IMG/VR virus record: IMGVR_UViG_3300024345_000775
Coordinates: 25,144 to 89,143 of that record
Length of the DNA stretch: 64,000 nt
Direction: 5' to 3' (one strand)
Source of the DNA: a virus
Taxonomy: Duplodnaviria > Heunggongvirae > Uroviricota > Caudoviricetes
The notes under the pieces are model-generated. The model did no database searches. It had not been told where the DNA came from and saw only the letters and a program-made list of their open reading frames with translations. Below, one piece after another: positions 17,594 through 19,524 of the stretch. How positions within the stretch are numbered: position 1 is the first letter of the stretch; each line of letters opens with the position of its first letter. A program made the position numbers and the translations under genes.

Positions 17594-17908
17594 TCATACA
17601 AGTCTGAGAAATTCTTGGATTCCTATTTCAGTATTTTGTTGTCTCCAAGTTTGAGCTAAGACAGTACAATAGTCAAAGTACTGTTTATCCTCTGTTTGTG
17701 TAATAAACACAAACTGTCCATTTCTTTTTAGAGAAATATCCCACAAAGGTATCTTCTTCCTAGATTCAGCTAACTTAACTTCTAGAGTCAAATCTCCTAT
17801 ATCTAGTATCACCATTTGTAGTAAATTAGGATTTGTAATAACAGCTCTTTGAACTAATGCACTTCTTAACTTCAAAATTTTTGCTAGGATAGCTTCTTCA
17901 GTAGTCAT
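17594..17908 (-). CDS. hypothetical protein
   Basis: 104-aa ORF abutting the vWA gene. Confidence 0.35.
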   Translation of the reverse strand: MTTEEAILAKILKLRSALVQRAVITNPNLLQMVILDIGDLTLEVKLAESRKKIPLWDISLKRNGQFVFITQTEDKQYFDYCTVLAQTWRQQNTEIGIQEFLRLV

Positions 17909-19524
17909 TAAATGACAATCTGTTTAACTTTTTCAATGTGAGCTTGTGGATTGAACTCCAGTTTAGCTACATCATCAAACATTGCATATCCAAAGCCATA
18001 ATAGTAGTTAACTCTACCATCATGTTTAATAGGAGTAGTACCATATGCAGCCATATCTACTGAGTAAATGTAAGGCATTTCATCTGCACTACATTTAGAC
18101 AGTAATCTCTTATAAGCTTGTACATTACTACCCTGATTGCATTCATTGTCAGAAAGAATGAAAATTCTGTTATACTTGATATTGTTCCAATTCTTAGCTA
18201 CTAAATCAAAAGCAGAAGCTAAGTTAGTACCACCCATGCTGGTATTTCTGAGACTTCTTGCAATCTCAAATACATTTTGCATAGGATTATAGGTACCTTC
18301 TCTTGCACCACTACCAAATACAATTAAATCACCACCAGTTGCTTTTAAAATAGTAGCAGCTACAAGTGATGCTTTATCCAGAACTGTATTTCTACCAGCA
18401 GATTTCTTTCTAAGGTCATATACATTACTCCAACCCATAGAGCCTGAGCAATCTAAGATAACCAAATTTCTACCTGGCAATGCAGGACCAAGATTAGTAG
18501 TAGACAGTTCATATCCTTTTATCAAGGAAGCAGCTATCAATTTACCAGTCTGAGTACTTGCAAATTCATCCATAACAATGTCATAGGCTACATCTATCTG
18601 TTGTGGCATAATATTACCTTCTCTGATTCTTTTAGCATCTTCTAACATTCCACAAAGTTTCTTGATAGAATTGATGTTAGCAGTCTTGAGAATGTTTCTT
18701 ATGTTTCTAAGAGCAGCAAGAATACCAAGTTGATTGTTCATCAACATGTCATTCCAGTTTTCACTCTTAGCCTGGTCAAGAGCCAACTCAGCCTCTTGTG
18801 CAGATATTTCACCTCTTTTTACTTGTTCTGCTATTTCTTGTCCAGCAGCAGACTGTCTAGTCTCCCATGTATTAGCAGCAACATGCATACCAGTCATGAG
18901 AGCAGTTAATGACTTAACTCTTCTACCTTCAGCCTCAATGTCTTCTGTAACATTAGGATTTGGATGTACTAAGTTAGATATATCAATAACAGGCTTTTTA
19001 TATTTAAACATCTGATATGGTGACAATGCTTCAATATAGTTCTTGAAACCTTTCTTCATTGCCATACTGAGTTTATGAGGAGCATTCATAGCGAAATAAA
19101 TCATCTTAATCTCAGACATATCATCAGGTCTACATATACATCCACCTCTCTTGTTCTTTTTATCATAAGAACTGTAAAATCTCTTAGCCCATTCTCTTCC
19201 AGCAATGTAATCAGCCAATGCGGCTGCTGCTAAATGATTTACACTTCTTAAACCTTCTCCCTCCCATCTAGAATACACAATACATTGTGCAGCCAAATAA
19301 GGGTCTTTCCTTGCCACTTTTTCAACAAGTTCAATAACTTCTAGCATTTGTTGGTTAACACCTCTATAGTACTGTTGTTCTAACTTGAGAACATTCAGTG
19401 CTGATAAAAGTTTTAACTCATCTCCTAATGCATAAGCAGCATGTCCTTGTCTATTAACAGTGTTAGGAGCTTGTACTTTAGTAGTAGCAAGAACTCCTAC
19501 ATTCATTTTGCTAAATCTTGACAT
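17908..19524 (-). CDS. vWA (MIDAS) domain protein with long helical N-terminal domain; candidate Ro60/TROVE-like RNA-binding protein
   Basis: MIDAS motif LVILDCSGSMG at ~residue 350 of 538. N-terminal 340 aa look helical. Length and domain order match Ro60/Rsr (TROVE + vWA), but the TROVE assignment is not verifiable by eye. Confidence 0.45.
   Translation of the reverse strand: MSRFSKMNVGVLATTKVQAPNTVNRQGHAAYALGDELKLLSALNVLKLEQQYYRGVNQQMLEVIELVEKVARKDPYLAAQCIVYSRWEGEGLRSVNHLAAAALADYIAGREWAKRFYSSYDKKNKRGGCICRPDDMSEIKMIYFAMNAPHKLSMAMKKGFKNYIEALSPYQMFKYKKPVIDISNLVHPNPNVTEDIEAEGRRVKSLTALMTGMHVAANTWETRQSAAGQEIAEQVKRGEISAQEAELALDQAKSENWNDMLMNNQLGILAALRNIRNILKTANINSIKKLCGMLEDAKRIREGNIMPQQIDVAYDIVMDEFASTQTGKLIAASLIKGYELSTTNLGPALPGRNLVILDCSGSMGWSNVYDLRKKSAGRNTVLDKASLVAATILKATGGDLIVFGSGAREGTYNPMQNVFEIARSLRNTSMGGTNLASAFDLVAKNWNNIKYNRIFILSDNECNQGSNVQAYKRLLSKCSADEMPYIYSVDMAAYGTTPIKHDGRVNYYYGFGYAMFDDVAKLEFNPQAHIEKVKQIVI

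Follow-up and report, generated by a model that had tools for sequence, protein, structure and literature searches.

From bacteria to humans, Ro60 and its Y RNAs are conserved; in lupus and Sjögren syndrome, Ro60 is a major autoantigen. Here we analyse a stretch of 64,000 nucleotides (nt) from a virus of the class Caudoviricetes (positions 25,144 to 89,143 of IMG/VR record IMGVR_UViG_3300024345_000775; hereafter the window), which encodes what is almost certainly a Ro60-family ring protein of 538 amino acids (aa) and carries four putative small RNA elements related to the Y RNA YrlA. The Ro60 protein of Thermus phage phiLo binds two phage Y-like RNAs (Yrl1 and Yrl2) and the host polynucleotide phosphorylase (PNPase) (PMC12135203). 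In Salmonella and Mycobacterium smegmatis, Rsr binds the Y RNA YrlA, which has a conserved YUAY opening the V loop, and YrlA-like RNAs have been found near Ro60 in 22 phages (PMC4201824). A review of jumbo phages mentions TROVE/Ro-like proteins together with "a tRNA-like partner" (PMC7824862), and a TROVE or Ro-like annotation is already present in many phages, for instance crAss001 and phages of Gordonia, Streptomyces, Rhizobium and Caulobacter. Published work already covers Ro60 proteins of phages, their YrlA-like RNAs and a solved phage Ro60 ribonucleoprotein (RNP). For the window, the outcome is the functional assignment of one gene and four small RNAs within a kind of system that is already known, and it supports the hypothesis of the initial annotation, made from the letters of the stretch, of a Ro60 protein with tRNA-like partner RNAs.

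The gene and its parts are as follows.

17908-19524, minus strand: Ro60/TROVE-family gene (phage Ro60 homolog), 538 aa, ATG start; from the open reading frame (ORF) list, PHROG, profile search, Foldseek and Pfam.
18481-19524, minus strand: N-terminal helical HEAT-repeat/TROVE ring part, residues ~1-348; from DSSP of the AlphaFold2 model, the full-length structural alignment to the Ro60 ring and a partial Pfam TROVE match at residues 219-318.
17911-18468, minus strand: C-terminal vWA domain, residues ~353-538; from Pfam VWA_2 at residues 355-460 and vWA_Ro60 in 25 of 31 relatives.
18439-18453, minus strand: DxSxS of the MIDAS (metal-ion-dependent adhesion site), residues 358-362, with T433 and D459.

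The 538-aa protein of the initial annotation is an exact ORF, and its MIDAS sequence DCSGS, within LVILDCSGSMGW, occupies residues 358-362. In the family alignment of 31 sequences, D358, S360, G361, S362, T433 and D459 are invariant, so the MIDAS pattern DxSxS...T...D is complete. More than 2000 homologs were found at E<=1e-3 among the scored candidates, and an exhaustive homolog search gave 4299 cluster representatives (50% identity) at E<=1e-3; with homologs so numerous, the ORF can be regarded as a real gene and not a chance ORF. The PHROG 850 family ("RNA-binding protein") is matched from end to end (4.5e-30), and the best match of the single sequence among PDB sequences is phiLo Ro60 (8e-9). 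Among solved structures, a profile of 31 relatives matches phiLo Ro60 (7e-16), Xenopus Ro60 (1.6e-10), human RO60 (5e-8) and Deinococcus Rsr (1.8e-5), and the matches ranked after these Ro60 chains are insignificant. Two checks had been named in advance, a TROVE (PF05731) hidden Markov model search and a comparison of the predicted fold with Ro60 structures. Regarding the former, TROVE is present in 29 of the 31 aligned relatives at E<=0.01 (best 2e-8), and 25 of the 31 match vWA_Ro60 (PF25045), the model made for this vWA domain. Regarding the latter, the AlphaFold2 model (predicted local distance difference test, pLDDT, 80.7; predicted TM-score, pTM, 0.73) is nearly all helix over residues 9-348, followed by an alternating beta/alpha vWA domain at 353-538, in agreement with the ~340 helical residues before a vWA domain that had been expected. 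A Foldseek search of the PDB returned 13 matches at E<=0.001, every one a Ro60 chain aligned over the full length (526-581 columns, TM-score 0.46-0.70). The protein is predicted by this model to be a closed helical-repeat ring capped by the vWA domain.

The ORF might instead join an unrelated helical domain to a vWA domain, as a MoxR/NorD-type partner, a CoxE-like or a TerY-like protein. Searched alone, it falls short of both Pfam thresholds (VWA_2 25.1 bits against a cut-off of 27; TROVE 19.6 bits, E 6e-4, against a gathering score of 23) and shows a weak VWA_CoxE match. However, the profile search at E<1e-4 retrieves Ro60 chains only, the PHROG 850 match covers the full length, and non-Ro60 vWA structures align only with the last ~200 residues at a TM-score of ~0.2, which makes such a protein most improbable. 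The proposal of a Ro60/Rsr ortholog stands as far as the Ro60 family is concerned, from profile and fold, and is too strong with regard to Rsr. Identity to the solved Ro60s is 14-22%, and the NCBIfam Rsr equivalog model (NF041674) gives 24.4 bits against a cut-off of 900, so the protein is an Rsr homolog and not an Rsr equivalog. It falls within a separate, very large and mostly phage Ro60 clade, distant from bacterial Rsr. Its nearest relatives (99%, 81% and 80% identical) are on short contigs, and further relatives of ~50% identity are on phage-like contigs of up to 287-410 kb.

Rfam reported only tRNA and tmRNA (transfer-messenger RNA) over the whole window, both at gathering thresholds and at E<=5. 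In Gordonia phage Neville, our positive control, it reported tRNAs only, although a YrlA-type RNA is visible there by eye; because Rfam misses this RNA, its negative result is uninformative on Y RNAs. The RNA family was found through relatives of the window protein, where two related loci had truncated Rfam tRNA matches directly behind Ro60 that led to a conserved element of ~125 nt. For 20 copies in a MAFFT-only alignment, RNAalifold gave helix P1, an internal loop, helix P2 and then D, anticodon and T arms, with compensatory changes in 16 of 26 pairs. When 52 copies were aligned to the covariance model, 98.6% of cells were paired, against 42-52% with the partners slid, and double changes were present in 25 of the 26 pairs; this alignment, being fitted to the model, favours the structure. 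Two covariance models were used: R1, from the alignment of the native-order elements, which detects the element in many loci, and R2, of the permuted type. E-values of these models come from a shortened calibration and are rough.

The family consists of a constant closing module and a variable apical module. The closing module is formed by P1, a 5' loop U-R-G-Y-N-A, P2 and GUUACUUC, and on the return by P2', a loop ending in UUUCU, and P1'. The apical module is a short A-rich loop (60-90 nt in total), a native-order cloverleaf, a T arm only, or a permuted series of V, T arm, acceptor-like stem-loop (AS) and D arm. Among the native-order cloverleaf copies, the anticodon varies between orthologous copies. 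The permuted order UUAC..-V-T arm-AS-D arm occurs in many copies beside Ro60, and in Neville a permuted copy is found just upstream of the Ro gene. The UUAC of the elements corresponds to the conserved YUAY of YrlA. Given this correspondence and the permuted copies in the same scaffold, the family is best described as YrlA-related with exchangeable apical modules. The position equivalent to the YrlA motif GNCGAAN0-1G is occupied by U-R-G-Y-N-A (UUGUCA in the window). A promoter reading of TAGYAA-N8-9-GUUACUUC, for example for a crAss-like virion RNA polymerase, was rejected, since the spacer P2 and the upstream P1 covary with downstream segments, which is unexpected of a promoter; a study of phi14:2 found no common motif upstream of early transcripts. 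Scanning viral and metagenome collections for an exact pattern, with 15-16 bases specified from the 5' half, gave mostly chance matches, with 17/120 and ~6/120 verified, and was useful only for loci L343 and L320.

In order to measure linkage to Ro60, 68 dereplicated Ro60 loci (+-4 kb) were searched with a hand-written descriptor. Copies were found 123 times on the Ro60 strand and five times on the opposite strand, with at least one copy in 53 of the 68 loci and a copy within 1 kb in 45. A total of 89 of the 123 copies lie within 1 kb of Ro60 against 35.7 expected (binomial 4e-23, a value that takes the loci as independent, ignoring shared ancestry, and rests on the hand-written descriptor). 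As a control, 80 phage RtcB loci (~800 kb, with an RtcB 57-60% identical to that of the window and without Ro60) contained no same-strand copies. The elements are usual for members of the clade and occur in arrays of 2-5. A motif-first metagenome scan, mostly noise, recovered L320, where copies abut a 26%-identical Ro60. Elements are also found beside more distant Ro60 genes in the Crassvirales cr111_1 and csAssE-Sib, in the 634-kb phage LR745206.1 and in the cultured crAss001 (L288, MH675552.1). In the last of these, the unannotated 900 nt after the TROVE gene gp96 (5811-6715) hold four elements.

5905-5990 and 6001-6085 of L288: minimal elements.
6086-6230 of L288: tRNA-like gene with a ~80-nt insert carrying ..GAGUUACUUC.
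6390-6480 of L288: T-arm subtype.

The csAssE-Sib "tRNA-Tyr" and "tRNA-Lys" (L087 3666-3738 and 3811-3884) and the cr111_1 "tRNA-Gln" (L290 3917-3992) adjoin Ro60 and are full-length R1 matches of 40-66 bits, P1/P2 flanks included. A different structured RNA of ~200 nt follows Ro60 on phage contigs of 287-325 kb (L004 9654-9868; also L002, L003 and L005), whose Ro60 is 51% identical to the window protein. This RNA is closed by a stem UCUUCUAAUC/GAUUAGGAGA, carries three CGAA/CCGAA motifs, GCCGAAUG among them, and has an intrinsic terminator (z -3.4).

The window itself holds four copies of the family.

47396-47537, minus strand: element B; R1 60 bits, E 4e-12, full length; R2 40 bits; ARAGORN tRNA-Thr(ggt).
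47256-47394, minus strand: element A; R1 74.5 bits, E 1e-15; R2 38.5 bits; ARAGORN tRNA-Arg(cct).
47172-47255, minus strand: element C, minimal, without a tRNA-like domain; descriptor match; R2 25.3 bits, E 6e-4; R1 10.4 bits.
51255-51392, minus strand: element D, "T-arm only" subtype, of lower confidence than A-C; R2 32.4 bits, E 1e-5; R1 15.5 bits, E 0.15.

Element B is composed of P1 GGAGGG/CCCUCC, the loop UUGUCAC, P2 AGAGAGGG/CCCUUUCU, UUACUUC and a tRNA-like cloverleaf in native order whose anticodon loop has 8 nt; it is called a tRNA by ARAGORN only, and has no Rfam tRNA match even at E<=5. Element A has P1 GCAGG/CCUGC, the loop UUGUCAA, P2 AUAUGGAGU/ACUCUAUAU, UUACUUC and again a native-order cloverleaf. 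Element C has P1 GGGGA/UCCCC, the loop UGUCAGU, P2 GUAAAGU/ACUUUGC, UACUUC and an A-rich loop. Element D reads GGGA-UUGUCAAC-AUGAGAG-UUACUUC ... CUGGUUCGAGUCCAGG-UCUCCCC, and its subtype also occurs right after the crAss001 TROVE gene. Each of the four copies has the closing stems and UUAC (YUAY), and A and B show the native D-anticodon-T order; no copy in the permuted YrlA order was detected in the window by regular expression or R2. R1 was run over the window with filters off, and ordinary tRNAs match only its tRNA core (model positions ~30-108). R2 recovers B, A and C independently, adds D, and finds nothing near the Ro60 gene. It also matches 43389-43490 on the plus strand (22.9 bits), and a further R2 match, at 55628-55791, was rejected because it is an ordinary tRNA-Met that lacks UUACUUC. 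The B-A-C array, element C included, recurs in a relative of 90% identity (L343, from a 168.5-kb contig); the element A of L343 differs from that of the window by two fully compensatory P2 changes, and the acceptor stem is re-registered yet paired. The tRNA-like RNAs that had been put forward as candidate partners can thus be named as these four YrlA-related elements (47172-47537 and 51255-51392), of a family tightly linked to Ro60 genes elsewhere.

The tmRNA gene lies immediately downstream of the B-A-C tandem, and RtcB comes after it.

46746-47122, minus strand: tmRNA gene; Rfam RF00023 93.2 bits; ARAGORN.
45001-46212, minus strand: RtcB RNA ligase gene, 403 aa; Pfam RtcB 1.5e-62; NCBIfam RtcB family models.

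The order is B-A-C, tmRNA, ~530 non-coding bases and RtcB, which places the RNAs ~1 kb from RtcB, and 25.5 kb separate Ro60 from RtcB. The initial annotation rightly placed an RtcB in the window and considered that a triad of Ro60, Y RNA and RtcB would be complete here, although scattered. All three are indeed present, and scattered. In 82 related loci the 4 kb on either side of Ro60 contain no RtcB, and in 80 loci around RtcB no Ro60 lies within 5 kb. As the two genes are never neighbours in these ~160 related loci, the triad is a co-occurrence and not a conserved operon. The ~530 nt between tmRNA and rtcB (46213-46745, minus strand), where neither a credible ORF nor a match to Rfam, R1 or R2 was found, could harbour a further non-coding RNA or else be a long leader of rtcB. 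A gene for a 626-aa SPFH/band-7 protein (48572-50452, minus strand) is located ~1 kb upstream of the array. A tRNA-like gene at 59715-59785 (minus strand), without the UUACUUC scaffold, is reported by ARAGORN as "tRNA-???" with a 2-nt anticodon and by Rfam as a tRNA (53 bits), with full acceptor, D and T arms. It cannot decode, because a GAGA tetraloop takes the place of the 7-nt loop on its anticodon stem (CUACA/UGUAG), and it may be a tRNA mimic or decoy.

Taken together, we consider it reasonably probable that the Ro60 ring protein pairs with the Y-like RNA elements of the window. A number of observations weigh against this. No Y-like RNA adjoining the window Ro60 gene was found by Rfam, folding, motif scan, R1 or R2. 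The elements are on the same strand as Ro60, with the nearest copy 27.6 kb from the gene, outside the 4-kb rule for YrlA. The YrlA motif GNCGAAN0-1G is absent near the Ro60 gene and from elements A-D, its single minus-strand match in the whole window being at 60620, inside an ORF. No UUACUUC-type element is found within 8 kb of the Ro60 of the L004 type, and the rough E-values and the assumptions behind the binomial value given above count on the same side. Element A, as a tRNA, scores 58.1 bits with Rfam RF00005, with a 7-nt anticodon loop (CCU) and an acceptor stem of 6 base pairs (bp) plus a C1xA72 mismatch, and compensatory changes between the window and L343 keep that acceptor stem; it may also, or simply, be a working tRNA-Arg(CCU). 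Two non-coding stretches close to the Ro60 gene, on its downstream side (17483-17593 and 16607-16789), were rejected as Y RNAs, as they fold like shuffles (z -0.7 and -0.6) and reach 8-9 bits with R1 (E>4).

The tRNA features of element A are accommodated by an explanation in which Ro60 has no dedicated Y RNAs and takes misfolded or 3'-extended structured RNAs through its central hole, A and B being ordinary tRNA genes (Arg-CCU and Thr-GGU) whose leader-trailer duplexes are processing signals only. It agrees with the position of UUACUUC, which directly adjoins the predicted 5' end of the tRNA as an RNase P leader would, and with that of the elements in tRNA-rich regions, the Ro60 genes of these phages being often embedded in tRNA arrays. 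However, tRNA-free minimal copies retain P1, the internal loop, P2 and UUACUUC and also adjoin Ro60, whereas the ordinary tRNAs of the window and related loci are without P1/P2 flanks. Anticodons are free to differ between orthologous copies, the acceptor stem of the Ro60-adjacent type 1 has only 5 bp, the 8-nt anticodon loop and the Rfam failure of element B do not suit a tRNA, and a permuted YrlA domain, impossible as a tRNA, is held by the same scaffold. We regard this explanation as unlikely. A further one, which we find very unlikely, is that the elements bind another factor or act as DNA (for example as recombination sites made of folded single strands, or as boundaries of cassettes), and that their nearness to Ro60 reflects only a shared "RNA island". 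A stem, conserved loop and stem with variable apical "cargo", arrayed 2-5 at a time, do recall cassette-type sites, and the window elements are far from Ro60 and adjoin tmRNA. Against this explanation stand the 123:5 strand bias towards the Ro60 strand and the T- and D-arm sequences, whose tRNA tertiary-interaction nucleotides are sensible only in RNA. Also against it stand the YrlA architecture, experimentally bound by Ro60 in Salmonella and M. smegmatis (PMC4201824), the status of Ro60 as sole common gene of the loci, and the absence of elements from the 80 RtcB loci.

For the pairing of Ro60 with the elements, which we favour, the binding, the effector and the biological role are inferred from homology and precedent. 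The phage Ro60 would be a HEAT-repeat ring closed by the vWA/MIDAS domain and would most likely form RNPs with the phage's own YrlA-related RNAs B, A and C, and probably D too. The constant module (P1, P2, the internal loop with 5' U-R-G-Y-N-A and 3' UUUCU, and GUUACUUC) would dock on the outer face of the ring, as modelled on the Y RNA stem in the Xenopus and bacterial complexes. The apical module, a cloverleaf in A and B, could then show a tRNA shape to a second factor, such as a 3'-5' exoribonuclease like host PNPase, or a tRNA-handling enzyme. PNPase is an established second factor, in the Rsr-Y RNA-PNPase complexes of Deinococcus and Salmonella and in phiLo Ro60-Yrl-PNPase (PMC12135203). 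The outcome may be decay or quality control of structured RNAs in infection, either phage tRNAs and tmRNA or host RNAs. The TROVE gene gp96 of crAss001 is an early gene (PMC8375218), and its early expression fits a role in the takeover or protection of RNA metabolism at the start of infection.

A more speculative idea, rather unlikely in our view, is that the YrlA scaffold is a modular carrier whose apical slot could hold a complete, possibly functional tRNA, with element A (Arg-CCU) as a candidate. Ro60 would then act as a gate or chaperone when particular phage tRNAs are released from Y-RNA-like precursors or, in an alternative form, one transcript would be both Y RNA and tRNA precursor. Such a carrier would tie Ro60 directly to phage translation control and would explain both the Ro60 genes in tRNA arrays of gut and jumbo phages and the RNAs beside tmRNA and RtcB here.

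The window has a G+C content of ~33% and almost every gene on the minus strand. It encodes, besides RtcB, a DnaB-like helicase, NADAR, CinA and nicotinate phosphoribosyltransferase, and ARAGORN finds 12 tRNA-type genes and the tmRNA; this gene content is a large-phage context. One ORF directly follows Ro60.

17594-17908, minus strand: 104-aa ORF, whose ATG overlaps the Ro60 stop codon (ATGA).

Through this overlap the 104-aa ORF is predicted to be translationally coupled to Ro60. An 84%-identical copy lies directly after the 81%-identical Ro60 of locus L001, and the ORF is kept only in this closest relative; it has no Pfam, NCBIfam or PHROG match. The other neighbouring ORFs are likewise kept only in L001, and megablast returned no match to the Ro60 locus among 50,697 phage records. 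Informative Pfam, NCBIfam or PHROG matches around the gene are limited to NADAR, a metallophosphoesterase, CinA and a HicA-like toxin. The last is a 65-aa ORF (20744-20941, minus strand; PHROG 353 "toxin", 2e-7) between CinA and the Ro60-proximal ORFs. The metallophosphoesterase ORF of 237 aa (15852-16565, minus strand) overlaps tRNA-Phe (16534-16606) at its 5' end, and its true start is probably the internal Met (MAKITAVSDLHGD...) just past this tRNA. Three genes, all on the minus strand, are related to NAD: NADAR (14772-15335, 1.5e-32), the CinA/PncC-type gene (20925-21416, 4.9e-46) and nicotinate phosphoribosyltransferase (38312-39493, 8e-60). Scattered as they are, they suggest a phage NAD+ salvage; in cr111_1, too, a phosphoribosyltransferase gene is a few kb from Ro60. 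The only tRNA genes near the window Ro60 are tRNA-Phe (1.3 kb) and a tRNA-Pro/His pair (3.2 kb). In L011, L017, L024 and other loci of the ~50%-identical relatives, Ro60 is found inside dense tRNA arrays, with up to ~20 same-strand tRNA genes within 4 kb. Four stretches of the window free of any ORF of at least 45 aa (55909-57351, 26839-27330, 27799-28340 and 36170-36640) are unusually long for a tightly packed genome and gave no Rfam matches.

These results carry a warning for annotation, since some phage "tRNA genes" are Y-RNA-like elements, here tRNA-Thr(ggt) and tRNA-Arg(cct). As a cultured phage with an early TROVE gene and elements, crAss001 offers a tractable system for the phage Ro60 RNP.

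Among the closest known systems is Thermus phage phiLo Ro60 (phiRo60; PDB 9KOP and 9L5Y), also a phage TROVE and vWA ring, which is both the best PDB sequence match and the top Foldseek match. Like phiLo, the window phage encodes small structured RNAs of its own as candidate partners. The two differ in sequence (20-22% identity), host and phage lineage, and the phiLo RNAs are simple hairpins with a CGAA motif directly upstream of the gene, whereas those of the window are without CGAA, carry a tRNA-like module and lie 28 kb away. The best superposition is with vertebrate Ro60 (Xenopus 1YVP and human 9NEN; TM-score 0.67-0.70 over ~570 columns), which shares the length of 538 aa, the domain order and the MIDAS; identity is only 14-15%, and nothing in the window elements corresponds to the Ro-binding helix of the vertebrate RNAs (GGUCCGA with a bulged C). 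Deinococcus radiodurans Rsr (PDB 2NVO) has the same ring and vWA fold but is 14% identical and the weakest structural match (TM-score 0.46). In its RNA Yrn1 the tRNA-like part is oriented the other way, an "anticodon arm" lying between D-like and T elements (PMC4201824), which is the topology of A and B; Yrn1 differs in lacking a full D arm, in binding PNPase through a large loop and in having no sequence similarity to the window elements.

The Salmonella rsr-yrlBA-rtcBA locus and mycobacterial and actinophage YrlA (PMC4201824) resemble the window in having a Ro60-family protein, tRNA-mimicking RNAs and RtcB in one genome. The RNAs share a closing stem, a YUAY (UUAC here) that opens the apical module, and T/D arms with tRNA-like loops, and the permuted order is found in related phage loci. 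In contrast, the window protein is no Rsr equivalog, its RNA copies are native-order, T arm only or without a tRNA-like part and do not have GNCGAAN0-1G, and the genes form no single operon, with distances of 25.5 kb and 27.6 kb separating Ro60 from RtcB and the RNAs, respectively. Among gut phages, crAss001 gp96 and other Crassvirales TROVE genes (cr111_1, csAssE-Sib), detected by tblastn, also have elements of the RNA family beside the gene, and at a distance of 2.3 kb from the crAss001 TROVE gene is an SPFH/band-7 gene (gp91), a kind of gene that the window has as well. These proteins are 22-32% identical to that of the window, and the crAss001 elements directly follow the gene. In the literature searched we found no published link between gp96 and these RNAs, and no description of the breadth of apical-module variation in one scaffold, of the presence of elements in gut phages such as crAss001, where some are wrongly annotated as tRNAs, or of the dislocated arrangement seen in the window. 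The apical variation, the gut-phage elements and the dislocated arrangement are extensions of a known kind of system.

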